From positions 1-24,811 of the forward strand of contig CAYMTC010000001.1 of NCBI GenBank assembly GCA_964393265.1: a stretch of DNA of 24,811 bases, read 5' to 3'. A model generated the notes under the pieces. That model saw only the letters and a list, made by a program, of their open reading frames with translations. It ran no database searches and was not told the origin of the DNA. Positions 11,410 through 24,811 of the stretch are shown piece by piece. The translations under genes were made by a program, and so were the position numbers. Position 1 is the stretch's first letter. Every line of letters begins with the position of its first letter. This stretch comes from an uncultured Thermoleophilia bacterium. Lineage in GTDB: Bacteria; Actinomycetota; Thermoleophilia; UBA2241.

Positions 11410-12603
11410 CTAGCCCGCGCTGGACGGGGCGCCAGCGAGGTAGTCGCCCGCAGAGCCGCCTACCACCAAACGGCAGTAGGGCGTAGCGGGCGCGCCCGCC
11501 GGCCGGGCAGACGGGCCCGTGTCGTGGACCGGCACGTCCGTTGGCGTGGCCACCAGGCCCGTACGCTGGGAGAGCGCGTCCGCGGGCGTGACTGGCGTGC
11601 GCGTACGCTGGGCCGGCGCGTCCGCGGAGTCGCTGGGCACGCGCGGTACGACTCGTTCGAGCGTACCGCGGGCAAGTGCGGTCTCGCCATCCCGAAGCTG
11701 TTCGGCGAACCGCCCCCTGAAGGAGACGATGTCGCGCACATGGTCCACGGGCTCGCCTGACAGGAACGACACCGAGTCGATCCCGTAGCGACACGGCGTG
11801 AACAACGCATCGGCAGCGTCGGTCACGCGGGCGCGGATCTCTGCCGGGCCCAGGTTCTCTACCGACTCCGCGCCGAACGCGGCTGCGGCCTCTGACCGGA
11901 GCTTCACGAAGCGCACGAACACCGAACGGTCTTGGTACCGGCACTCGTTCACCTTACGAGCCTGGAGGCGGGCGAACTCGCGGGCGTCTAGAGGCGTCTC
12001 GGAGGAGTGCGCCTCATGGATGACGCCCAGGTGCTCGGGTCGCGGACGTGTGATGGGGCCATCATCCTCATCCAGCAGTCTCCTCAGCGCCGCCGCGACA
12101 GTGCGGCAGTGCTTGTCGCCGTACACCACCACGTCGATGTCCGAGGAGTCGTGGTGCAGCCCCACGAGGATGGACCCGGTGACTCCCAGACACGACAGCG
12201 GGACCTGGGCAGCACGCGCGATCGTCGTGAGGAGACCGAGGGTCGCCCTCTCGAGATGGTCCGCACGACCGTGACGCAGGAGGCCTTCCAGCCGCAGTCG
12301 CGGATCGTGGACGCGACTCACCCGCTCCCAAGGAACGGACTGGACCGTGGCAGCCAGCTCAGCGTCGTACGCGAGGTACAGGTCTCCGTGCGGACGGAGC
12401 AGGGCCTCTTGATCCCGGAAGCCGTACACGCGGCGGAAGCGTGTACCACCGCGCACACGATCACCTGAGGGGTCGGGAAGGTACCGGAGGTAGGCGACGG
12501 TGCGGTGCGGAGGGTGGACGTGGCCCTTCACGGTGAAGACCAGTTGGTCCGCCGTCTCGAGAGCGAAGCCCTCGATAGCCATATCGACACTTGCCTCAGT
12601 CAT
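11410..12603 (-). CDS. Archaeal-type predicted nucleotidyltransferase (COG1665-like); start uncertain (12639, 12603 or 12582)
   Basis: F-x-VKG-x-x-HP...AYLRY N-terminal motif; Pol-beta-type GVTGSILVG...SDIDVVVYG; C-terminal FTPCRY...VSFRGRFAEQ...ARGTLERV. Confidence 0.75.
   Translation of the reverse strand: MTEASVDMAIEGFALETADQLVFTVKGHVHPPHRTVAYLRYLPDPSGDRVRGGTRFRRVYGFRDQEALLRPHGDLYLAYDAELAATVQSVPWERVSRVHDPRLRLEGLLRHGRADHLERATLGLLTTIARAAQVPLSCLGVTGSILVGLHHDSSDIDVVVYGDKHCRTVAAALRRLLDEDDGPITRPRPEHLGVIHEAHSSETPLDAREFARLQARKVNECRYQDRSVFVRFVKLRSEAAAAFGAESVENLGPAEIRARVTDAADALFTPCRYGIDSVSFLSGEPVDHVRDIVSFRGRFAEQLRDGETALARGTLERVVPRVPSDSADAPAQRTRTPVTPADALSQRTGLVATPTDVPVHDTGPSARPAGAPATPYCRLVVGGSAGDYLAGAPSSAG
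11479..11646 (-). repeat. In-frame degenerate 42-bp tandem repeat (4 x 14 aa) inside the nucleotidyltransferase
   Basis: PRVPSDSADAPAQR / TRTPVTPADALSQR / TGLVATPTDVPVHD / TGPSARPAGAPATP; DNA CGTACGCTGGG...GCGCGTCCGCGG recurs at 11560 and 11602 (42-bp period). Confidence 0.75.
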
Positions 12604-12682
12604 GGCCGTGACAGGTTTGTGCCCTTGTCGAAGAGACATGTAAGCTGGGTGAAAGAGTCAGATAACGACAACGGCGGCTACC

Positions 12683-13393
12683 ATGCAGTTGCTGATCAGT
12701 CTGGTCCGCGAGGATGAGATCGAGCCCGCTGTCGCGGGCGGCGCCGACATCATCGACGTCAAGCAGCCTCGTGAAGGGTCTCTGGGCGCGGGCCTGCCGC
12801 ACGTCATTCGGCGCGCACGCGAGCTCACGCCGGCCCACATCCCCGTCAGCGCCGCCATCGGCGACATGCCCAATCTGCCAGGGACCGCCGCGCTGGCCGC
12901 CGCCGGCGCCGCGGACTGTGGCGTGCAGTACGTCAAGGTGGGGCTCATGGGCACGCGCACCGGCGCTGAAGCAGAGGTGTTGCTCAGCGAGGTGTGCCGC
13001 GCCGTGCATGACAAGGCGCCCACAGCCCGCGTCATGGCCACGGCTTACGCCGACGCTCGCTCCGTAGGCTCGCTGCCTCCCAGCGAGCTCCCTCAGGTCG
13101 CCTCCAAGGCGGGTGCGTACGGCTGCATGATCGACACCGCCCGCAAACAGGACGGTACGCTCCTCTCCATCATGCCGACCGCCCAGATAGCTCAGTTCAT
13201 CGCCGCCGCTCGCGAGCTCGGCCTGCTGTGCGCCCTGGCTGGGTCGCTGCATGCCGACGACATGCAGACGATCTGCGAGCTGCAGCCCGACGTCGTGGGC
13301 TTTCGCGGCGCCGCCTGTCGCGGCACCCGCGCGGACGGCACCGTGGACAGCGCGGCCGTCGCCCATCTCAAGCACCTCTGCGCCTGCCACTGA
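12683..13393 (+). CDS. mfnB: (5-formylfuran-3-yl)methyl phosphate synthase (4-HFC-P synthase; Orf22/DUF556)
   Basis: GGADIIDVKQPREGSLGA, VSAAIGD, YVKVGL, MIDTARK and LAGSL motifs. Confidence 0.93.
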   Translation: MQLLISLVREDEIEPAVAGGADIIDVKQPREGSLGAGLPHVIRRARELTPAHIPVSAAIGDMPNLPGTAALAAAGAADCGVQYVKVGLMGTRTGAEAEVLLSEVCRAVHDKAPTARVMATAYADARSVGSLPPSELPQVASKAGAYGCMIDTARKQDGTLLSIMPTAQIAQFIAAARELGLLCALAGSLHADDMQTICELQPDVVGFRGAACRGTRADGTVDSAAVAHLKHLCACH

Positions 13394-14027
13394 GCTCGGC
13401 GTCCCGCGCACTCAGTACCAGCTCCACAAGCTCGTGCGATGGCGCGCCCGCGACGATCCATGCGTCCACGGGCTGCGACTGCAACTGGTGCGCAAGGTAG
13501 GCGTCGATGACCCCCCGCCGCGCAAGACCGACCGCAGAATCTGCGTCCAGGCGCGCCGACGTGAGAGCCCCGCCCCTGGACGACGTCAGCGCGCTAGGGT
13601 GCTTGAGCAGCACCAGCCGCGACCTGGCGAGCGCCGCCACCCATGCTGCGATCGAGTCCGAGGTCACGTCCCAAGAGTGCGGCAGCGGGTCTTCGCGACG
13701 CAGAAGGTCGCCGGGCAGCAGGACTGGCACGCATCCCTTCTCGATGACCTCCTCGGCAGAGGCCAACTCGCGCACCACAGCACCTCGGACGAGGTCTGCC
13801 AACTCCAGACCGAATTGCTCCATGGCCGCCACGGCCATCCAGTGAGCCGCCTCGTCTGAGAAGCCGTCGCGCGCCTGCGCGGAGCGCACGGTGTCCGCGT
13901 ACACACCGCCGCCCGGCACCAGCAGCAGACCCCGCTGACCGCCCAATCGGCCCATCTCGCTGCACAGCGCACCAAGACCCGTGCCGGCGGCGAGGCTGCC
14001 CCCCACCTTGAGCACCATGTCGATCAT
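13368..14027 (-). CDS. mfnE: Amino-acid-kinase-family protein, furan phosphate kinase (Orf21)
   Basis: VLKVGGSL, VPGGGVYADTVR, AHWMAVAAMEQFG, LPHSWDVTSDSIAAWVA; ATG 14027 forms an ATGA overlap with the mfnF stop. Confidence 0.88.
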   Translation of the reverse strand: MIDMVLKVGGSLAAGTGLGALCSEMGRLGGQRGLLLVPGGGVYADTVRSAQARDGFSDEAAHWMAVAAMEQFGLELADLVRGAVVRELASAEEVIEKGCVPVLLPGDLLRREDPLPHSWDVTSDSIAAWVAALARSRLVLLKHPSALTSSRGGALTSARLDADSAVGLARRGVIDAYLAHQLQSQPVDAWIVAGAPSHELVELVLSARDAELSGRRRGA

Positions 14028-15076
14028 GCGTGTCCACCCAGGTCCTGGGCGAGCAGACACGCCACGGCCGCTGCGGGAAGAGCCACGGCCTGCGCCGTCT
14101 GCTCGCTCAGGACGGCGGCGGTCCGCATGTCCAGACGCCGAGCGGCCTCCTCCGCCAGAAAGGCTCCTGCGCCGGCTGGGACGACAGACCTGCTCGCGCC
14201 GTCGGGCAGGCGGGACAGGACCTGGAGCACGCCGTCACCGATGCGGTGCAGCTGACACTCCATGAGGTACCGCGCCATCTGCACGACGTCCGGCTCGGCG
14301 AGCATCTCAAGGTCGGCACAGACCAGCCGGGCCAGGCGGCCAGCCGCCTCACCAGGTGTGGTGCCGCGCCCGTCTGCCGTGGGACAGGTGTAGTCAGCAG
14401 CACTCAGCTTCCCGAGAAGGAGGTAGACGTCGGCCATGAGAGCGAAGTGCTCGGCCGCGACGCGTGTCATGCGTCCGCGCACGGGCACGACATCGGTGAG
14501 GGACTGTGGTTCGCTGCGCAGCACCCCGGTGTAGAGGAGCTCGCCAGAGCCGAGCCTGCCTGTGTCGTCGCGGCCCTCGTTCTGGACTCGGCCACCGCTG
14601 ATGGGGATGATGTCGGTGGTCGTGCTGCCCACATCCACCAGCAGGCAGTCGGGGTGATACTGCGCCACATACAGCGCCGACGCCAGCCAGTTGGTCGCGG
14701 CCAAGTCCAGCGGCCGCGCGCGCGCCACCTCGTTTGAGACGAACTCGCCGTTGATGCTGAGCGCCCGCGCATCTGCGCCGGGGAATGCCTCCCGCACCGC
14801 GTCCAGCACGGTGAGCACACCGTCTCGCTTGCAGGCGAACGCGTCCGAGAGCTCAGCGGTCATCGTCAACGCCATGACGTACGCATCGGCCAGCGCGAAG
14901 CGCTCAGCCACGTCGCGCAGCACGGCGGCCAGCCGTATCGGGTCGCGCCAGATCTCGAACGGCTCTACGGCGACCTGCACGACCTGGGCGGACCCATCCG
15001 TCCACACCACGTGAGCGGCCTTCGTATTGACCCCCCCTATGTCCCAACCCACCACATGGAGCGTGTCTGCTGTCAC
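14024..15076 (-). CDS. mfnF: Hydantoinase/oxoprolinase-like ASKHA protein of the H4MPT/MFR cluster (Orf9)
   Basis: GWDIGGVNTKAA, TMTAELSDAF, AATNWLASA, LVDVGSTTTDIIPI; GTGA overlap with the mfnD stop. Confidence 0.9.
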   Translation of the reverse strand: MTADTLHVVGWDIGGVNTKAAHVVWTDGSAQVVQVAVEPFEIWRDPIRLAAVLRDVAERFALADAYVMALTMTAELSDAFACKRDGVLTVLDAVREAFPGADARALSINGEFVSNEVARARPLDLAATNWLASALYVAQYHPDCLLVDVGSTTTDIIPISGGRVQNEGRDDTGRLGSGELLYTGVLRSEPQSLTDVVPVRGRMTRVAAEHFALMADVYLLLGKLSAADYTCPTADGRGTTPGEAAGRLARLVCADLEMLAEPDVVQMARYLMECQLHRIGDGVLQVLSRLPDGASRSVVPAGAGAFLAEEAARRLDMRTAAVLSEQTAQAVALPAAAVACLLAQDLGGHA

Positions 15077-16098
15077 CAGGGACCCGCCTTCTGGAACGGG
15101 ACGGGGTGCTGCGGCGAAGCGTCAGGCGGCAGCACCCCATCGACACAAGCGCGCCAGAGAGCCTCGCCGAGGTCGATGGACAACGCCTCACGAAGACCGA
15201 TGTAGGAGGTCGTGAGCCGTGGATTGACCTCTATGAGCTGGCATCCAGAGTCACTGACGACCATGTCGACACCTACGTAGCCACGCAGCCCCGGAAGCAG
15301 AGACACCGCCTGCCGGGCAAGTGAGAACGCCTCTTCGCGCCGCTCGTGTGCAATGCCGGCGACGCCGCCAGTGTACTCGCAGGGGATCCCGAAGTGCATG
15401 CGCTGCTCATTCATGCCCAACACCGAGGCTGCTCCATCGGCGACCAGCAGCGACACGCTGGCCGCGGTGCCCGCGACGTACTCCTGGACGAGCAGGTCCT
15501 CCCGCGATGGCTCGCAGACGTGCAGCGCCCGGGTCCACTCCGCAGCGTCTTGCACGAGACACACGCGCTCACACCCGGCGCCGGAGCGCGGTTTCACGAT
15601 GACTGGATAGGCGATCTCCTGAGCGACCGCGAGCACCTTGGGCGGCGCCACCAGTCGGGTAGCAGGTACCGGCAGGCCTGCGGCATGCAGAAGACCGTAC
15701 AACTGCCACTTGTCGGCAGCACGAGCCACAGCTCCCGGGGCACTGCCCAGCACGTGGACACCCGCCGCAGCCAGATCGCGGGTGACGCACTCAAGGACTC
15801 TCCCTCCCTCAGGCGCTATCAGGAGCGCAGCGCCGCAGGAACGGGCGACGTCGATCAGGCCTCCCGGATAGACTTGGGGCGAGAGCGGCACCACGCGGTC
15901 GGCTTGCACAGCTCCCAGGGGCAGCCGTCGGTCACAGGTCGTGACGATTGGCAGCCCGCCCCACGCGCGGAGGTCCTCTACCACTGCGCTCAGCAGCGCG
16001 AGGGCCTCCCCGCCTAGCGGCTGCGGCAGCTCCGGCTCTGGCCAGCCGCCGCCCACGACGTACTCGTGTACCAGCAGAGCCGACGGAGAGAGACGCAT
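15073..16098 (-). CDS. mfnD: ATP-grasp ligase, tyramine--L-glutamate ligase-like
   Basis: LLVHEYVVGGG, LIAPE, DKWQLY, KPRSGAGC, QEYVAGTAASVS, GYVGVD, IEVNPRLTTSYIGLR. Alternative starts 16107 and 16125. Confidence 0.8.
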   Translation of the reverse strand: MRLSPSALLVHEYVVGGGWPEPELPQPLGGEALALLSAVVEDLRAWGGLPIVTTCDRRLPLGAVQADRVVPLSPQVYPGGLIDVARSCGAALLIAPEGGRVLECVTRDLAAAGVHVLGSAPGAVARAADKWQLYGLLHAAGLPVPATRLVAPPKVLAVAQEIAYPVIVKPRSGAGCERVCLVQDAAEWTRALHVCEPSREDLLVQEYVAGTAASVSLLVADGAASVLGMNEQRMHFGIPCEYTGGVAGIAHERREEAFSLARQAVSLLPGLRGYVGVDMVVSDSGCQLIEVNPRLTTSYIGLREALSIDLGEALWRACVDGVLPPDASPQHPVPFQKAGPW

Positions 16099-16858
16099 GG
16101 AGTGCATCCCAGTCCTAGACCTCATGAACGGGGCCGTCGTCCACGGCCACCGCGGTGAGCGCCAAGGCTATCGGCCTGTGGTGAGTCACTTGTTGGACGG
16201 AGCCGACCCACTCGACGTCGCGACGGCGCTCCTGTCGGTGACCGGCACCAAGCGGCTGTACGTCGCCGACCTCGACGCGATCAGCCGGCGAGGCGACCAC
16301 TGCGCCGTGCTGCAGCGACTGAGAGACTCGCTCAGCGCTGACTTGCTGGTGGATGCCGGCAGCGGCCAGACGGAGGCGGCCAGACAGGTGCTCGACTCCG
16401 GAGCCACCTGCGTGGTAGTGGGCACCGAGACACTGCCGGACGTGGCCTCGTTGCAGCACATCCGCGAGCGTCTTGGCCACGAGAGAGTGCTGCTGAGTGT
16501 GGACACCACCACTCACGGTGTGCTGAGTCGCTGTGACGCACTGCGCGGGAGGTCGCCCTTGGACGTGCTGCGGCTGCTCGACGCGGCGTCGCTCGGCCAG
16601 GCCCTGGTCCTGCACCTCGACCGCGTGGGCACAGGCACAGGGCCGGCCCGCGACGACCTTCGTGCGGTACGGTCGGCCTACCCTCAGCTGCGCCTGGTGG
16701 CAGGCGGCGGCGTGCGCACGCCCGCTCACTTGGCTGAGCTGGCCGCGGCAGGGGTGGATGCCGTGCTGGTCGCCACCGCGCTGCACGAGGGCTGGATCAC
16801 GCGCGGCGACATCGAGCGCACAGCACGGGGCACCCCAGAGTTCACCAACGCGTCGTGA
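16097..16858 (+). CDS. HisA/HisF-related TIM-barrel protein (Orf17 family, furan cofactor biosynthesis)
   Basis: IPVLDLMNGAVVH...RQGYRPV, LYVADLDAI, LDRVGTGTG, VAGGGVR; GGAG 8 nt before ATG 16097. Confidence 0.88.
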   Translation: MECIPVLDLMNGAVVHGHRGERQGYRPVVSHLLDGADPLDVATALLSVTGTKRLYVADLDAISRRGDHCAVLQRLRDSLSADLLVDAGSGQTEAARQVLDSGATCVVVGTETLPDVASLQHIRERLGHERVLLSVDTTTHGVLSRCDALRGRSPLDVLRLLDAASLGQALVLHLDRVGTGTGPARDDLRAVRSAYPQLRLVAGGGVRTPAHLAELAAAGVDAVLVATALHEGWITRGDIERTARGTPEFTNAS

Positions 16859-17732
16859 GCTCTGGCACATCGGCCAGCATGCCCCCCTCTGTGAGAAAGA
16901 CGAACAGCGACGCGGCGATCAAGTCGGCCGTGGTGCCAGGGTTGAGCCGGTGTGCATCGTCCCGTAGCTCGTCGTCAAGACGCTGCACTTCTCGGCGGCC
17001 CAGCTCGGTGTGCAGGCCGCCTGCGTCGAGCACTTCGCAGGCACGCCGCGAGACGTGCGCAGCTTCACGTTCCCCCAGCTTGCGCGCGATGAGGGTGTCG
17101 GGCACCTCAGAGAGGATCTGCAGGAACGCCGTCGTGATGGCCACCGACAGTGAGTCGCCGCGCTGCCACGAGTGCGACAGGGCCTGGGCTCCGCACTGGA
17201 ACGTGATCTGGTAGTCGGTGAGGTACTCACGAGCGATGCTGTCCCTATCCCGTGCACTGCGCATGGCCTCGAGCAAGCTCACGTCCACTTGCGCGCCAGC
17301 GACGTCGTGCTCCTGGACCCGACCCAACCCGCCGGGCTGCGCCATCGCGATGGCCGCATAGGCGCTGCGGGCATCCTCCACCGACAGACCAGCCAGCACG
17401 CCACGCAGTGCGTCACGTAGGCCGTGCTGAGAAGCGTCCATGGCTGCGGCTTTGGCCAGCGGGGCCAGGAGCAGCACGATGCCAAGGTTGGTGTTCGTGG
17501 CAGACACCTGACGGGTGGCAGCCACGGCTTCTCGGATGGTCTGGCCCACGCCGCGCTCGCCGGCGGCGGCGAAGGGAGGCCCGATAGCCGCCGCGCTCGT
17601 CAGGAAGTCCAGGACACCGACGTCGGCGAACCGCGCGCGAGGTGACACGTTGCCAGGCTTGTGCGCCATGACCTCGAACTGACAGGAGAGCTGCACCGCG
17701 AGCGCGATCTCTTGCCCCTGCAGTGGCCTCAT
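16842..17732 (-). CDS. citG: CitG/triphosphoribosyl-dephospho-CoA synthase-like protein (Orf7 family)
   Basis: EVMAHKPGNV, TNTNLGIVLL, PDTLIARKLG, NPGTTADLIAA; ATGA overlap with the orf5 stop. Confidence 0.87.
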   Translation of the reverse strand: MRPLQGQEIALAVQLSCQFEVMAHKPGNVSPRARFADVGVLDFLTSAAAIGPPFAAAGERGVGQTIREAVAATRQVSATNTNLGIVLLLAPLAKAAAMDASQHGLRDALRGVLAGLSVEDARSAYAAIAMAQPGGLGRVQEHDVAGAQVDVSLLEAMRSARDRDSIAREYLTDYQITFQCGAQALSHSWQRGDSLSVAITTAFLQILSEVPDTLIARKLGEREAAHVSRRACEVLDAGGLHTELGRREVQRLDDELRDDAHRLNPGTTADLIAASLFVFLTEGGMLADVPELTTRW

Positions 17733-18601
17733 CCGTACACATCCACGACGTACTGGACCAGCTCCTCCGCAGCATCGATGCCCGTGGCGCCCTTGAGAGC
17801 TCGCCAGCCCGGTATGGAGTTCACCTCCAGGACACGGTAGACGTCGTCCTCGCCAGGAAGGATGTCCACGCCGGCGTACTCGGCGCCCACCGTACGGGCC
17901 GCCCGCAGGCTGAGGTCGCAGAGGTGGTCGTCCGGATCGAGCGGGATGCTGCGCGCCCCTTGCGCTGCATTGGTCTTCCAGCTGGTGCCGCGCCGTATCA
18001 TGGCGCCGACGACGCGCGGACCGATGACGAACACGCGGATGTCCTCGTCCCGATGGGGGACGAACGCCTGCAAGTAGTACACGTACCGTCCCAACTCCAG
18101 GGCCCGGAAGGCGCGATACGCGGAGTCCGGGTCCGAGACGCGGACCATTCCCTTGCCCTCGGAGCCGAAGAGGGGCTTGAGCACGACGTCGCCACCGAGC
18201 TCCTCGAACGCTGCCAGAGCGTCTTCGAAGCGCTCGACGACCACCACTGGCGGTGTGGGAAGGCCCTCGGCGGCCAGCAGAGCTGTCGTGTAGTACTTGT
18301 CAACGCCGCACTCGATGGACCTGGCCGAGTTGATCACCGGCGTGCCGTTGCGCTCGAGCTCCCGTAGCGCGTCCATGCGGAAGATGACCTGCTCTAGGGA
18401 CCCTGTGGGGATGGCCCGTACGAACACCACGTCCATCCCGTCGAGCGACACGCCGTCGGCGTGCAGGCTCGGCGTGTCGCCGGCCCGTGCGACAAGGCGT
18501 GTGACTGGTACGACCTCGGTGGCTATGCCTTGGGCGCGGAGCGCCCCGAGCAGGCTCTCAGTGTGCCAGCCGCCGTTCTGTCCGAGGATCGCGGCTTTCA
18601 A
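17729..18601 (-). CDS. RimK-family alpha-L-glutamate ligase (Orf5/MyfB or MptN-like)
   Basis: VRAIPTGSLEQVIFRMDAL, DKYYT, VLKPLFGSEGKG, DIRVFV, WKTNAAQG, LEVNSIPGW; TTGA overlap with the mch stop. Confidence 0.9.
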   Translation of the reverse strand: MKAAILGQNGGWHTESLLGALRAQGIATEVVPVTRLVARAGDTPSLHADGVSLDGMDVVFVRAIPTGSLEQVIFRMDALRELERNGTPVINSARSIECGVDKYYTTALLAAEGLPTPPVVVVERFEDALAAFEELGGDVVLKPLFGSEGKGMVRVSDPDSAYRAFRALELGRYVYYLQAFVPHRDEDIRVFVIGPRVVGAMIRRGTSWKTNAAQGARSIPLDPDDHLCDLSLRAARTVGAEYAGVDILPGEDDVYRVLEVNSIPGWRALKGATGIDAAEELVQYVVDVYG

Positions 18602-19569
18602 CTGAGCAGAGAACGCTCGAGGAGATCCGCGTCAACGACGCCCGCCTGGACCGTACGGCCGCTGAGACTACTGGTGAGGAAGACCTCCGCCGGGCTGAAC
18701 AGCAGGGGGTCGATCTTGTAGAAGTCGCCACCGTAACGTTCGAACAGCTCTTTGAAGGGCACACCATGGTCGCGGGACGCCGCTGCAGGCAGCCGGTCGA
18801 TGACCGACGCGATCGCGTCGTCCTCGGCCTGCACCGTGTACCAGGAGCGCCCGCCGTAGAGGACGGCGTCGTTGGTGCGTCCTATCGCCGACAGGTCGTC
18901 GCGCGCCACAGGCGCCATGGGACACACCCCGAAGCCGGAGCGCACTGTGCCGATGTCAAAGCCTACCTCGTGCATCTTGTGCAGACCTGTCTCCACGATG
19001 CGCGCGGCGATCTGTACCGACCCCACGAGGCTTGCTGTGGGAGCCACCAGCAGCAGCAGTGAGCCCGCCGGCACGCCGCACTTCTTAGCCACCCAGGCGA
19101 CCGCCTCGTCGGTGGGCAGCTGCCGCGACTCGAGCGTGAGCACCGCTCGCGAGGCCGTGTCCTTGTATCCCAGGTCCTCGAAGAGCTGCTCGCCACAGTA
19201 CAGAGCGCGGGCCGGCCCCGAGCCCATGGCGAAGTAGCCCGGCGTCGACTCACTGCGCGGGACGTCGATGGCCCAGCCCGCGTACTGCGACGCCATGCAC
19301 GCCAGTACAGGCTGTCGTACGTCCACCTCGACACCCGGTAGCACCAGCGCGTCGAGTCGGACCTCGCACAGCCGGACGTCACCCAGGCCGCCGAGGCACA
19401 CCTCCGCGAACAGACGGCCCGCTTCCAGTGAGCCCGGCACCTCGACGCCGGCGTCCACGACCGTGGCGCCGCTGGCGAGCTGGTGCACTTGTAGAGCCAA
19501 GGCTTCTGCATCCTCGACCATGCGGTCGACGATGACGGCTGCTCGATCATTCAGACTGATCACGGACAA
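18598..19569 (-). CDS. mch: Methenyl-H4MPT cyclohydrolase
   Basis: MGSGPARAL, LTLES, APTASLVGSVQIAARIVETGLHK, GRTNDAVLYGG, KIDPLLFSPA; TTG 19569 (or GTG 19563) after GAGGGGAG. The ORF-track extension to 19776 is not protein-like. Confidence 0.96.
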   Translation of the reverse strand: MSVISLNDRAAVIVDRMVEDAEALALQVHQLASGATVVDAGVEVPGSLEAGRLFAEVCLGGLGDVRLCEVRLDALVLPGVEVDVRQPVLACMASQYAGWAIDVPRSESTPGYFAMGSGPARALYCGEQLFEDLGYKDTASRAVLTLESRQLPTDEAVAWVAKKCGVPAGSLLLLVAPTASLVGSVQIAARIVETGLHKMHEVGFDIGTVRSGFGVCPMAPVARDDLSAIGRTNDAVLYGGRSWYTVQAEDDAIASVIDRLPAAASRDHGVPFKELFERYGGDFYKIDPLLFSPAEVFLTSSLSGRTVQAGVVDADLLERSLLS

Positions 19570-19813
19570 GCATCTCCCCTCTGCGGCCTGTGCCGCGGTC
19601 GTCCGCAGAGCACTCGAGGTCGCCCTAAGGACCCTCCGCCAGGCCGTCGCATTCCAGGTCGGCTCAGTGCCGGCACGAAGCGGCGCACGATGGCTGGAGG
19701 CCATTGACGTGCGCACCGCCAGACCGGTGACATGGTGACAGGGCCGCCAGCGACGCGTTGATGGCGCGCACATCACCGCGCACGCGTGGCCAGCACACCC
19801 TGCGCCTCGCTCG

Positions 19814-20698
19814 CTAGCTGAGCAGCGCGTGGAGCGGGAACTGGTACTGCCCCAGCTCCCCGCCGTAGTTGCCCGCCGAGATGCGGGTGACTCCGGGGCG
19901 ACATGCGGCTCTCATGCCCACGCGCATGGCATCTCCGACCGCATCCTCGGTGAGGCCGTCGACCACGATCTCGAGCACGGCGTTCTCATCGGGGCCGAGC
20001 GGCGAGTCCACCTGCCCCTTGAGCGTGGGGCAGTAGAACGTGTTGCTGGACACGTGCTGACCCTTGTACATCGACGAGACCTTACTCCCGCTGCGCACGA
20101 CGCCTCCCGGGAAGGGCATGATGACGCCTGGGACACTGCGCATGGCCTCCACAGCCGCCTCGGCAGCGCCCAGAGCCTCAGCGATCCCGGTGGCCATGAT
20201 GAAGAAGTTGCCGCCGCCCACTGCCTTACACACCCCGAAGCTCTCGTCGATGACGAACTCCCCGTCCATCACCGGCACGCGCCACAGGCGCCTGCCGTCG
20301 ACCAGCTTGCTGCGCTGGAAGCCGTCGCCGAAGTACCGGAGCTTGCCGCCGACCTTGAGACGCTCGTCGGCCTGCAGACCGTTGTAGCAGGCCGACGTGG
20401 CCGAGGTCATGATGCTCTGCCCGATGCGCGCCAGCAGCTGCTGCTCCATGCTCTTGCGAGAGGTGGTGAAGATGAGGACGGCCACGCCCGGCCTGCCGTC
20501 TGGCGTCGCCTCGTCGGGGGGCAGCGTGTTGACACCGGCCTCGCAGCCGCAGCCGATGATGGACGTGGCAAAGCCAGTCGCCGAGGCCGCCGCGGTCTGA
20601 GCCCACGAGAGAGTGTCTGCTGTGACCACGAGCCGGGCACCCCACATGCCAAAGGCTTCCGCAAAGGTGTCTACGATCTCCACACCGTCGATCTTCAT
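19814..20698 (-). CDS. ftr: Formylmethanofuran--H4MPT N-formyltransferase (Ftr/FhcD)
   Basis: GVEIVDTFAEAF, GFATSIIGCGCEAG, TPDGRPG, RYFGDGFQ, PVMDGEF, GGGNF, FPGGVVRSGSK, YCPTL, EIVVDG, ISAGNYGG. Confidence 0.96.
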   Translation of the reverse strand: MKIDGVEIVDTFAEAFGMWGARLVVTADTLSWAQTAAASATGFATSIIGCGCEAGVNTLPPDEATPDGRPGVAVLIFTTSRKSMEQQLLARIGQSIMTSATSACYNGLQADERLKVGGKLRYFGDGFQRSKLVDGRRLWRVPVMDGEFVIDESFGVCKAVGGGNFFIMATGIAEALGAAEAAVEAMRSVPGVIMPFPGGVVRSGSKVSSMYKGQHVSSNTFYCPTLKGQVDSPLGPDENAVLEIVVDGLTEDAVGDAMRVGMRAACRPGVTRISAGNYGGELGQYQFPLHALLS

Positions 20699-22161
20699 CA
20701 GGTCCCGGCTCCTTTCCCAGAGACTGTGCCGTCGTACGCCGTCACGCCGCCCGCTTTGGCTGCCTGAGCAGGGTCTGTGTCCGCGGCACTACTCGATACT
20801 TCTCGTGGCGCATCGTCAAGGTACCCCCAACGGAGACCCGACTCTTGCGTGTACCTCTTGCCAAGAAGGACGGCAAGCGCGGCCCGCTCCAGTTCGCGCC
20901 CCATGTAGAACGCGTGCCCTGGGTCGGAGATCTCCAGCTGCTCGAAGAGACGCTGGGGGTCTGTACCACTGACGAATGTGTCACGATTGAACACGTACAC
21001 ACGCTGCGCGTCGGCGAAGATGCGGTAGTGCCGGTCCCGTACCCTGCTCTGCATGTCGCGGAGTTCGACCTCCGTGTACGGACGAAACGGCACATCCTTG
21101 AGCGCTATCAGGCGGTCATCGATGGACTTGGGCAGGACGCTGTTGGTGCGCGCGTAGTACATGAGCCTGCGCGCGACGTCGAGTTCCCGTACGGCGCCGC
21201 GACACCAGCTGATCACCTCGGTCGTAAGGACGTAGTCGATCTGCAGCTCGGTGAACACGCCGGCGATGACAGCGTTCACGCCATGGCTGTCGGCGTCGAG
21301 GAGCTCGGTGAGGTTGCCCACGCCCATGAGCATCTCCGCCGTAGGGTACCGGCGACGCACCTCCTGGAAACGGACCACCGACTCGGTGAAGCCCATGCCC
21401 AGCGGATCGAGGATGGGATCGAGGACGTAGGGCGCACCAAGCTCCGCCACCGTCTGCACGTTCCGCTCGAGCGAGTCGACGCCCTCACCGAAGTCCGGGA
21501 CCACCACGACCTTGCAGTGCAGGTGGGGAACGACATCGATGTTCTCGGAGTTGACGCTCAACACGAGGTCTACCCCGGCGTCGTCCGCCTCCCTGATCGT
21601 GTCACTATGGAACGTGTCGATACTGACGACGAAGCCGCGCTCCTTGAGTGCCGCGACCGCGTCTCCGACGCCCACGAACGGCTCCATAGGCGGACATCCG
21701 AGGTCGATGATGTCGGCGCCCTGCGCGCGGTAGCGCTCGGCCTCCGCGAGGATGCTTTCGAGAGACAGGTGCCACGCCTCGACGATCTCGGCAAGCAGCT
21801 TGATCTTGTACGCGCCGTAGCCGTGGAGCTGGGGCTCCTGGCCGTAGAACCGCGGCAGGTCGCGGAGGTCCTTTGGACCGCGTACCACGGGGACGCCGAC
21901 CTGTCGCTCGATGACGGACAGATCGCCACGACAGAGACCCGGGATCACGACCAGCTCGCAGCCGCGCGCGTCGTGCAGACGCCGCGCTATCCACTCCGTG
22001 CGCATGAGCGCAGCGACCGAGCCATTGAGGACGGCTGTCTCGTATGGGAAGTCCGGGGCCAGGCGTTCGAGCGTGAGCTGGAGCGCCGCAGCAGCCAGCC
22101 GGCCGGTGACGAAGAGCGTCTTTGGCACTGCCTCGTCGCTTTGGCTCAAGGGGCCAGCCAC
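20698..22161 (-). CDS. Dihydropteroate-synthase-like protein of methanopterin biosynthesis (Orf20; DUF6513 + pterin-binding barrel + C-terminal DUF4346-like)
   Basis: LFVTGRLA, VAALM, GPKDLRDLP, GADIIDLGC, LDPILDP, MLMGVGNLTELLDADS, TTEV, HAFYMGRELERA; TGATG coupling to ftr. Alternative start GTG 22128. Confidence 0.88.
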   Translation of the reverse strand: MAGPLSQSDEAVPKTLFVTGRLAAAALQLTLERLAPDFPYETAVLNGSVAALMRTEWIARRLHDARGCELVVIPGLCRGDLSVIERQVGVPVVRGPKDLRDLPRFYGQEPQLHGYGAYKIKLLAEIVEAWHLSLESILAEAERYRAQGADIIDLGCPPMEPFVGVGDAVAALKERGFVVSIDTFHSDTIREADDAGVDLVLSVNSENIDVVPHLHCKVVVVPDFGEGVDSLERNVQTVAELGAPYVLDPILDPLGMGFTESVVRFQEVRRRYPTAEMLMGVGNLTELLDADSHGVNAVIAGVFTELQIDYVLTTEVISWCRGAVRELDVARRLMYYARTNSVLPKSIDDRLIALKDVPFRPYTEVELRDMQSRVRDRHYRIFADAQRVYVFNRDTFVSGTDPQRLFEQLEISDPGHAFYMGRELERAALAVLLGKRYTQESGLRWGYLDDAPREVSSSAADTDPAQAAKAGGVTAYDGTVSGKGAGT

Positions 22162-23123
22162 TCTTCCAGCGTGATGTGCCGCTCTACCGGCGCCCCGCCG
22201 GCGAGCTCGTGACGGATGTCGCCGAGGGTGCCGTAGCGCTCGGCGAAGGCGTTGTGGTCGTGGATGCCTTCGAAGTTCTCCTGACGAGCGATGATGAAGT
22301 CTTCGTCAGGGAGGTTGGGGTAGGCAGCCACGGCAAGGCGCAGCATCTCGCGCACAGCGTCCTCGACGAAGCGCGGATTGCGGTGCGCCTTGTCCACCAC
22401 GTAGAGCTCGTCCGGACGCTTGAGCAGCTCGTAGATCTCCGAGCTCATCGACTGCTCGACGAGCTTGACGAGGTCCTCGGCGCGGAGCGACTCGCGCGAG
22501 CCCACTAGCAACGTGCCGCGTCCTCGCTGGTTATGCGAGGCCACAGGCACGACACTGAGGATGCAGCTGATCTGGTCCTCTGTGAACCCCTCTTGCAGCA
22601 GCTGCTCGCGGGACTGCGCCCGTACCATGTCCTGAGCGCAAGGACACACCGTGAGCCCGTTGACCTCGACACCGACCACCAGCCGTGTGGCATGGGGAGT
22701 GGCGGCAGCGATGCCGACGAGCGTGTAGAGCTGCTCGGTGGGACGATCCGTCACGGGAGTGCGGCGCACCAGAGGGGATTGGGTCTTGATCCGTACCTCG
22801 GCGCGATACGCCGCCTGCGTAGCCACGATCTGCTCTGCCATGCGGCTGGCCAGCGACTCGATGTCGGGGAACGGCCTGCGCGTGAAACCCTCGGCAAGCC
22901 CTTCCACCACCTCGCTGAAACGCGACATGTGGACACCGGCATACTCGGGACTGAGATCAGCGAAGAGATCGATGCTGGCGTAGAAGAGCTGAGGCTTGTT
23001 GCCGGCATTGATCGAGATGATGCGACGTAGATCGGTGACGCCCGCGCGGCTCAGTGCCACCGGCACAGCCGGCCGCGCATTCTGTGTGTCTCTGAGAGTC
23101 ATCTGCGGAGTGCTCTGTTCCAT
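22146..23123 (-). CDS. mptA: GTP cyclohydrolase, archaeal MptA type (FolE2/MptA family)
   Basis: GVHMSRF, CPCAQ followed by a long helical insert, then SHNQRGRG, YELLKRPDE, NPRFVEDAVR, ENFEGIHDHNAFA. Confidence 0.88.
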   Translation of the reverse strand: MEQSTPQMTLRDTQNARPAVPVALSRAGVTDLRRIISINAGNKPQLFYASIDLFADLSPEYAGVHMSRFSEVVEGLAEGFTRRPFPDIESLASRMAEQIVATQAAYRAEVRIKTQSPLVRRTPVTDRPTEQLYTLVGIAAATPHATRLVVGVEVNGLTVCPCAQDMVRAQSREQLLQEGFTEDQISCILSVVPVASHNQRGRGTLLVGSRESLRAEDLVKLVEQSMSSEIYELLKRPDELYVVDKAHRNPRFVEDAVREMLRLAVAAYPNLPDEDFIIARQENFEGIHDHNAFAERYGTLGDIRHELAGGAPVERHITLEEWLAP

Positions 23124-23130
23124 CGCCCGC

Positions 23131-23613
23131 CTACTTGCCTGTGCTCGCGAGGGCCTCGGTACACACGAGGTGACCGTAAGCGACCGCGCAGCTGCCGAAC
23201 AACAGATCCATGTCAGTGCGCCGTATCACGGCTTTCGCTAAGTCGGACTGCCGGGACTCGGTGGGTACGATATCTCTGCCTGACTCGATGGCCACGCCGC
23301 TGTTCATCCACCCGTCCCGCGTCGTACAGCACCGGCTGTATCGGGGGAAGCCGTGCGAAGGCGTGGGGGCCTTTGACCCGGCGTCGCTCTGGTCGACAGA
23401 GACCGAGATCTTGGCGTCCGCATTGACAGCCTCCGCCACTTTGGCGGCTTCCACCAGGGTAGTGTAGCCCATCTTGGAGTGCGCGCACTCCGTGATCGGC
23501 GACCCGGCTACGGTGCCACCTGTGGCCGAGGCCAGACCGTGCTCACGGCCGCTGTCCAGGTCGACACGCTGCTCACGACCGCGCCCGGCGACCGGCCTGA
23601 GCCGATGGCTCAC
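23131..23613 (-). CDS. Hypothetical protein, 160 aa, no recognised family
   Basis: AGGAGGT SD (23625-23619) 5 nt before GTG 23613; stop lies 7 nt before the mptA ATG; fills the operon slot exactly. Confidence 0.55.
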   Translation of the reverse strand: MSHRLRPVAGRGREQRVDLDSGREHGLASATGGTVAGSPITECAHSKMGYTTLVEAAKVAEAVNADAKISVSVDQSDAGSKAPTPSHGFPRYSRCCTTRDGWMNSGVAIESGRDIVPTESRQSDLAKAVIRRTDMDLLFGSCAVAYGHLVCTEALASTGK

Positions 23614-24784
23614 GAGCCACCTCCTCTCGCTGCTCGATCTCGGCGTAGACAGCCGCCACCTGGTCAAAGAGGTCGCGCATACATGCCGCGCGGCCGTCGC
23701 CATGGGCGAGGACCGTGCAGACGGGATGGCCGGGCTTGAAGATCTGCGCCGGCCGCGGTACGTCACGCAGGCCACGGAGCAGCCAGTGGTCCGTGTCCGG
23801 CGCGGCACTCACCCGTCGCGCAAAGACGACACCCTTAGCGTGACAGCCAGCCGCTGGCCAGGCCGGAACCGCCTCGGGAAGCCTGCCCTCCAGCGCCTCC
23901 AGGTGGAGCTTGAAGACGTTCACCCCGTAGGCGCGTTCTATGAGCTCCAGGGAGGCTGAAGGCCGAGGGTTGACCTCGACCAGGTGAGCCTCGACGTCGC
24001 CATCCGACAGCGGCGTGACGACCAGGTCGAGACCGTTGAGCCCCACCAGCCCGAACCGCGCGGTAAGGAGCTGTGCCATGTGTGCCACGCGCTCGTAGAG
24101 TGCGTCGCCAGCGGCGGCCACGGTCGGCGTGGGACCCAGCGCGAGCGGCAAGACATTGCCACACCACGCGAAGCCGCTCGCGCCCAGATCGTGCCGGCCC
24201 AGGAGCTGTTCCGTGAGGCCAAGCAGCACGCAGTCGCGTCCGTCGGCGACAAAGGCCGCGGAGGCCGCCACGCCCTCTATACGCGCCTGCAAGAAGTGGT
24301 CGCCGTCGATGGGCTCCCCACGCCACGGTCGTACTCCGTGGCCGCCGCCACTGCGGATCCGCTTGCGCAGCCAGACACGTCCGTCAGCGGCCTGCGACTC
24401 CTCGCCCGAGAGGAGGGTGGGCGGGTAGGCGATCCCCACCTCGCCGCAGAAGCGCCGCAGGACACGCTGATCGCGCACCTGTTCGAGCGTCGCCGCGGCG
24501 TTGCCCCGCACCCTGCGGTGCTGGGCAAGTCGCCGCACGGCTTGCGGATGGTTCTCAAGATTGGCGCCGTAGACGACTGCGTCAGCAGGGATGCGCAGCG
24601 CTGCCTCGACCAACCCGTCGGCTGTCATGGGCAACGCAAGGTCTCGAGGCAGCGCGTAGCTCTCTGCCACGCGTTCCTGATCACGGTCGCCGAAGAAGTC
24701 GGCGGCGGCGGCACGTACCCCGCCTGCCGCCGCCGACTCGGCGATCATCCGCGTGCTGACGCCGATGAGAAGGACGCGGTCTAC
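23573..24784 (-). CDS. ATP-grasp carboligase of the OrfY/MyfA (COG2232-like) family
   Basis: RVLLIGVSTR...DFFGDRD, GANLENHP, KRIRSGGGHGV, LQARIEG..AS, GLNGLD, VEVNPRPSASLE, GHPVCTV. The conserved N-terminus lies upstream of ATG 24748; the only SD-supported position is GTA 24784. Confidence 0.85.
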   Translation of the reverse strand, partial: VDRVLLIGVSTRMIAESAAAGGVRAAAADFFGDRDQERVAESYALPRDLALPMTADGLVEAALRIPADAVVYGANLENHPQAVRRLAQHRRVRGNAAATLEQVRDQRVLRRFCGEVGIAYPPTLLSGEESQAADGRVWLRKRIRSGGGHGVRPWRGEPIDGDHFLQARIEGVAASAAFVADGRDCVLLGLTEQLLGRHDLGASGFAWCGNVLPLALGPTPTVAAAGDALYERVAHMAQLLTARFGLVGLNGLDLVVTPLSDGDVEAHLVEVNPRPSASLELIERAYGVNVFKLHLEALEGRLPEAVPAWPAAGCHAKGVVFARRVSAAPDTDHWLLRGLRDVPRPAQIFKPGHPVCTVLAHGDGRAACMRDLFDQVAAVYAEIEQREEVAREPSAQAGRRARS

Positions 24785-24811
24785 TGTGCAAGCTCCTTCG
24801 CCAGCTCGAAG
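24781..24811 (-). CDS. C-terminal 9 residues (FELAKELAQ*) of a truncated upstream gene, possibly MtdA/MtdB methylene-H4MPT dehydrogenase
   Basis: Resembles the Mtd C-terminal helix (xYKLAKEMA-like), and mtdB-orfY adjacency is the usual order in methylotroph clusters; only 31 nt are visible. Confidence 0.35.
   Translation of the reverse strand, partial: FELAKELAQ

Follow-up and report, generated by a model that had tools for sequence, protein, structure and literature searches.

The window, meaning the whole stretch of DNA that was analysed (24,811 nt, 67% GC), belongs to an uncultured Thermoleophilia bacterium, the genome of which is an 83%-complete MAG in 343 contigs. The gene order at the locus is orfY, an open reading frame designated P0001, mptA and a DHPS-like gene, with ftr, mch and cofactor-biosynthesis genes further downstream. 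orfY (23573..24748, minus strand) is intact, encodes an ATP-grasp_3 protein and stops at the same position as in relatives. mptA (22146..23123, minus strand) is the gene after fwdA in relatives; its product, GTP cyclohydrolase MptA, scores 284 bits against TIGR00294 (cut-off 220). Both neighbours had been named in this way in an initial annotation made from the letters, and the names stand. Positions 11410-24811 of the window, with the rest of the contig (C1), hold a large H4MPT/methanofuran C1 cluster in a Thermoleophilia MAG, containing mch, ftr, mtdB, mptA, a beta-RFAP synthase gene, a CitG-like gene, several ATP-grasp genes and a DUF447 gene. No paper in the literature searched names both Thermoleophilia and formylmethanofuran dehydrogenase.

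P0001 (23131..23613, minus strand) runs from 23613 to 23131, has 160 codons and specifies a product of 160 aa. Its start codon is GTG (23613-23611), preceded by the Shine-Dalgarno sequence AGGAGGT (23619..23625) at a spacing of 5 nt (GGCTC). The Shine-Dalgarno sequence lies inside the coding tail of orfY, the stop codon of which is at 23575-23573, so that the two frames overlap by 41 bp. The TAG stop of P0001 (23133-23131) is placed 7 nt before the ATG of mptA (23123-23121). The motifs ECAH, RCC and SCAVAYGHLVC are all present in the translation. The initial annotation had described the initiation signals, the overlap, the stop and these Cys/His motifs exactly. The window contains 76 listed ORFs of at least 120 aa, compared with about 23 real genes; with so many spurious frames at 67% GC, the length of P0001 is no evidence of a gene. 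GC3 is 0.80 and CAI is 0.63 (11th percentile of real-gene windows; off-frame mean 0.45); the frame thus bears a coding signature, as would be expected had it once been a gene. The stretch matches no RNA family in Rfam, its RNA folding is not unusual (z = -0.67), and a scan of it for promoters and terminators was negative. A perfect 16-bp palindrome, GGAGTGCGCGCACTCC (23476-23491), lies just upstream of an internal ATG at codon 48. It is probably meaningless, about 0.4 such palindromes being expected by chance in 25 kb.

FwdA/FhcA, an amidohydrolase, is a subunit both of formylmethanofuran dehydrogenase and of the formyltransferase/hydrolase complex. The genes fwdD, fwdB and fwdA encode subunits D, B and A of the tungsten/molybdenum formylmethanofuran dehydrogenase, of which FwdD is small and molybdopterin-binding. 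Whereas the initial annotation could place P0001 in no family, whichever frame was read, matches to FwdA/FhcA come from NCBIfam, from PDB and from custom HMMs. NCBIfam and PDB (5t5i) searches give two weak collinear matches each, and the custom FwdA HMM, built from 25 sequences, resolves the same two pieces, with a gap of about 160 HMM positions between them. Fragment 1 comprises residues 20-57 (23443..23556, minus strand), corresponds to FwdA ~83-120 (...GGTV...MGYTTLVEAA) and is found by the FwdA HMM (E 3.5e-7), tblastn and PDB 5t5i. Fragment 2 comprises residues 55-138 (23200..23451, minus strand), corresponds to FwdA ~281-364 and is found by the FwdA HMM (E 1.4e-13), BLASTP and tblastn. 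Residues 1-24 (23542..23613, minus strand) are derived from the FwdD N-terminus, reading VSHRLRPVAGRGREQRVDLDSGRE against the consensus VSERLTLITGRTRKQAIGMHKGKD and matching positions 1-24 of the FwdD HMM (E 6e-4). The first 41 nt of this piece are also the 3' end of orfY, and the FwdD signal comes mostly from the first 13 codons, which belong to the same orfY tail; taken by themselves, residues 14-30 show no significant match to FwdD (30/300 shuffles reach the score). Residues 143-160 (23134..23187, minus strand) probably stem from the far C-terminal end of FwdA, AVAYGHLVCTEALASTGK against SVLSGHGVPTEIVACG. The best local match of AVAYGHLVCTEALASTGK within the whole FwdA of locus L032 is at 528-542 of 544 (shuffle p ~0.06), which for the last ~15 residues of P0001 is suggestive only of descent from the FwdA C-terminus. 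Placement of the tail on internal FwdA motifs (GHLGVGA; MAFFT placement) was dropped for the extreme C-terminus after the local-alignment test. No FwdB piece and no fragments in other frames of the stretch are detected by tblastn. Identity of P0001 is 27% with the genome's own FwdA (BLASTP) and 37-46% with FwdA of same-family relatives over the two matched pieces (fragment 2: 37-39%); P0001 is thus closer to the relatives' FwdA than to the genome's own copy, encoded on contig C119.

The active site of FwdA is absent from P0001. Two zinc ions in FhcA/FwdA are held by four His, one Asp and one carboxy-Lys (PMC6926001; PMC11656701). The ligand columns H57, H59, K183, H234/236, H265 and D379 (numbering of the genome's own FwdA) are all gaps in P0001. 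Among the columns invariant across five intact FwdA/FhcA sequences, 22/56 are retained. The Cys and His residues of P0001 stand in for unrelated FwdA residues (e.g. ECAH for GYLY) and are conserved nowhere. The score against TIGR03121 is 25 bits, far under the curated cut-off of 392.75, and a complete amidohydrolase barrel of ~545 aa is not present, P0001 having 160 aa, 119 of them aligned. The molybdopterin dinucleotide-binding domain of FwdD (NF042908) is absent, and no NCBIfam FwdD match is obtained. Pfam searches with the 160-aa and a 225-aa version return no family at E <= 1, HD and MptD domains included. With AlphaFold2, the single sequence reaches a pLDDT of 31.5, and a model given a FwdA alignment reaches 37 (pTM 0.25; range of pTM 0.16-0.25); in these models no fold is predicted for P0001, with or without an alignment.

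Constraint on the frame is strongly relaxed relative to intact orthologues. In a maximum-likelihood tree P0001 attaches among the syntenic Thermoleophilia FwdA sequences, on a terminal branch of 2.8 substitutions/site, compared with a median of 0.086 for intact FwdA (~30x). Identity at codon positions 1, 2 and 3 is 0.55-0.64, 0.57-0.66 and 0.41-0.54 between P0001 and intact genes, and ~0.8, 0.86 and 0.6 between intact pairs within Thermoleophilia. Intact pairs at positions 1 and 2 range over 0.77-0.86 within Thermoleophilia and 0.60-0.86 over all pairs listed. Three-taxon NG86 estimates for the relic branch are dN ~0.47 and omega 0.64-0.81, against mostly 0.04-0.28 on intact branches; these values of omega are rough (119 codons, dS near saturation, one triplet unstable). 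At the same codons, GC3 is 0.91 in the intact genes and 0.80 in the relic, and GC2 is 0.51 and 0.56, respectively.

P0001 is restricted to one lineage. A collection of 15 billion proteins contains no stand-alone small-protein homologue. A search of 5.8 billion clusters returned only the 113-aa gene call of P0001 itself, and a phmmer search of 1.84 billion representatives returned only that self match and P0003. The latter was rejected as a homologue: it is a 1068-aa tandem-repeat protein in which 14 weak repeated matches inflate the score, and the match is an artefact. Related-locus searches returned no relative from either GTDB genomes or JGI metagenomes. Apart from the window, P0001 occurs only on two Logan contigs, L029 and L030, from two sequencing runs (SRR32971144 and SRR32971142, respectively). 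L029 differs from the window at 3 positions over 2845 nt aligned (99.9% identity). The third base of the GTG start (23611, minus strand) is A in both contigs, giving GTA, which is no start codon; the start codon of P0001 is therefore not fixed. The remaining two SNPs of L029 are close together in orfY, at window positions 24443 and 24452 (columns 305 and 314 of the alignment), no more than 10 nt apart.

An MptA scan of GTDB genomes gave 50 loci, mostly from Thermoleophilia/Actinomycetota MAGs, with some from Desulfobacteraceae and relatives. The order orfY-fwdD-fwdB-fwdA-mptA-DHPS-like is found in about 27 of the 50. Since fwdDBA lies between orfY and mptA in relatives, P0001 occupies the fwdDBA slot. 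In G013 (AAGGAGG...GTG AGC) and other relatives, too, the Shine-Dalgarno sequence and GTG start of fwdD are contained in the 3' end of orfY; across about 20 loci, FwdD starts line up with the initiation site of P0001. Two genomes of the same genus (G001, G002) lack mptA and fwdA entirely. Losses at the same place upstream of mptA, partial or complete and independent, are seen in other Thermoleophilia: fwdD and fwdB are lost in MAG loci L036 and L037, nearly all of fwdB is lost in L075, and all that L047 retains is the first ~15 codons of fwdD, orfY and mptA being ~58 nt apart. The genome holding L047 (G043) has no FwdA at E <= 1e-20. The Cys-type fwdDBA block beside mptA has thus been trimmed or lost several times in Thermoleophilia, and the cases form a small evolutionary series. 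The gene order of Thermoleophilia, orfY-fwdD-fwdB-fwdA-mptA-DHPS-like, recurs in four loci of Desulfobacteraceae and Dethiosulfatarculus (L053, L056, L059, L077), where MptA is 58-61% identical; conserved order and sequence suggest inter-phylum transfer of the whole orfY-fwdDBA-mptA-DHPS-like module.

A second fwd operon, fwdD-fwdB-fwdA-fwdC, is intact on contig C119. Its FwdA has 545 aa, scores 711.6 bits against TIGR03121 and is 50-54% identical to syntenic-type FwdA. C119 is assigned to the same organism by binning, by GC match (0.662 vs 0.671) and by the precedent of G112, a genome of the same family that has both fwd types, its C119-type FwdA being 71% identical. Judged by that precedent, the second operon is a real feature of the lineage. 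In a short tree, the C119-type FwdA clusters with a sequence from Desulfobacteraceae; both are long branches, and the grouping is to be read with caution. The fwdB gene (C119:3002-4267, minus strand) has an in-frame TGA at C119:3938-3940, the position of the active-site Cys, and reads SSY*HGP, compared with SSVCHGP in relatives; the C119-type fwdB of G112 has the same TGA (SSYUHGP). A selB gene is present on contig C49 (304 bits, cut-off 242); aragorn finds no tRNA-Sec in the 83%-complete MAG. C119-type FwdB of this Thermoleophilia formylmethanofuran dehydrogenase apparently contains selenocysteine. In this genome, loss of the mptA-adjacent fwdDBA coincides with the presence of this second, apparently selenocysteine-using fwd operon.

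Descent of P0001 from a FwdA gene is shown by homology together with synteny. The preferred explanation, with a probability of roughly three in four, is that P0001 is what ordinary gene decay has left of an ancestral fwdD-fwdB-fwdA block between orfY and mptA: a chimeric in-frame relic. Deletions have taken most of fwdD, all of fwdB and ~420 of the ~545 fwdA codons. They have fused the fwdD start region with two FwdA fragments in one frame, a C-terminal piece being suggested only, and ~3.3 kb has shrunk to 0.48 kb via two or three in-frame deletions. The old fwdD Shine-Dalgarno sequence and GTG survive because they are embedded in the 3' end of orfY, which is still under selection. The stop beside mptA corresponds to the old end of fwdA by position, the homology of the tail being only suggestive (p ~0.06). 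The product would have neither an enzymatic nor a structural role, and any translation would be incidental. Loss of fwdDBA was plausibly tolerated because the divergent operon on C119 supplies the function. The initial annotation had named a decaying remnant as its fallback, and that part is borne out: P0001 is a fragment of known genes, formed through in-frame deletions and not through frameshifts. In annotation, P0001 is to be marked as a fwdD/fwdA remnant; neither 'hypothetical protein' nor 'candidate pterin enzyme' is a suitable label.

Several properties count against simple decay. The frame is open over 160 codons and is interrupted by neither stop nor frameshift, two well-supported junctions are in frame (three with the tail), and CAI and GC3 are still gene-like. 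Neutral simulations give a probability of 0.07-0.24 that the frame stays open, depending on the assumed equilibrium GC, and in-frame junctions are expected by chance in 1/9 to 1/27 of cases. Taken together, 160 codons free of stops and two or three junctions that kept the frame, at dN ~0.47, have a chance expectation of roughly 0.3-3%, which is somewhat unlikely under pure neutrality. The same properties are accommodated if the fwdDBA relic is held open by selection on translation and not on the protein. Ribosomes loaded at the initiation site left by fwdD would translate on to the stop before mptA across a sequence-independent bridge, so that coupling would be kept and Rho-dependent polarity avoided at the orfY-mptA junction. 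Both ends of P0001 abut functional signals of neighbouring genes, the lack of promoter-like and terminator-like sites fits a single transcription unit, and an open frame together with omega near 0.7-0.8 is what selection on readability alone would be expected to leave. However, GTG is replaced by GTA in the two near-identical sister contigs and the next in-frame ATG (codon 48) has no well-spaced Shine-Dalgarno sequence, which indicates that translation from the fwdD site is dispensable in those strains. In L047, moreover, orfY and mptA work ~58 nt apart without any bridge. P0001 was also picked for follow-up for being open (ascertainment bias), and a GC-rich equilibrium raises the chance of staying open to 0.24. 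Selection for readability is accordingly considered unlikely, although it is the alternative to be taken most seriously. If true, the case would illustrate neatly, in nature, how readability can be selected without selection on the protein, and would be of modest interest.

Far less probable is recruitment of the relic as a small protein, serving either the remaining (selenocysteine-type) Fwd complex as accessory or scaffold, or the pterin pathway as a helper, a role for the sake of which frame, Shine-Dalgarno sequence and start would persist. MptB is the archaeal cyclic phosphodiesterase (HD-domain), and MptD is dihydroneopterin aldolase (PF04038). The initial annotation had favoured an undescribed pterin enzyme replacing one of these. 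Its observation that MptD is missing is correct for the 83%-complete genome, in which PF04038 finds nothing, and it has no bearing on P0001. That absence may nevertheless be listed in favour of recruitment, with the open frame, the strong Shine-Dalgarno sequence and GTG, the gene-like codon usage and the several Cys and His residues. Against it, P0001 consists of FwdD and FwdA fragments without catalytic residues, its Cys and His positions are those of unrelated FwdA residues, and neither a Pfam domain nor a predicted fold is obtained. No small-protein homologue occurs in any collection searched, omega is about 0.7, sister strains lack the start codon, and relatives with the full pathway have no extra gene at the orfY-mptA position, where the slot holds fwdDBA and no pterin gene. 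The recruitment reading is already largely refuted, and the proposed pterin enzyme falls with it. An assembly artefact, in which a collapsed or chimeric contig runs through a real fwdDBA operon, is scarcely credible. The MAG is fragmented (343 contigs), but two Logan assemblies, made independently from different runs, contain the same 480-nt arrangement, with a single base changed over the ORF and the sequence directly adjoining it. The fragments are just 28-39% identical in amino acids to the intact FwdA sequences compared; they are therefore old and not a mis-join of a present-day gene.

Compared with FwdA/FhcA (TIGR03121; 5T5I chain A), P0001 has 119 residues of common descent in two collinear segments, lies immediately before mptA in the place of fwdA and keeps the local motifs GGTV, MGYTT, AEAVNA and W.N..V..E.G..VP. 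It differs in that ~22% of the protein is left and the metal ligands (HxH, carboxy-Lys, His, His, Asp) are deleted. With FwdD (NF042908) it shares the Shine-Dalgarno sequence, the GTG, the first ~13-24 codons and the same overlap with the orfY 3' end as in relatives; it differs in lacking the whole domain, which in G013 spans residues 107-214 of the listed 220-aa ORF. MptB and MptD are resembled only in the location of P0001 next to mptA. No resemblance to them exists in sequence, domain or fold, and the ancestry of P0001 is in unrelated families. In-operon pseudogene relics share with P0001 positional orthology, catalytic loss, relaxed dN/dS, lineage restriction and parallel losses in sister lineages. 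P0001 differs from them in having no frameshift or stop, which is unusual at such divergence and leaves room for a translated bridge.
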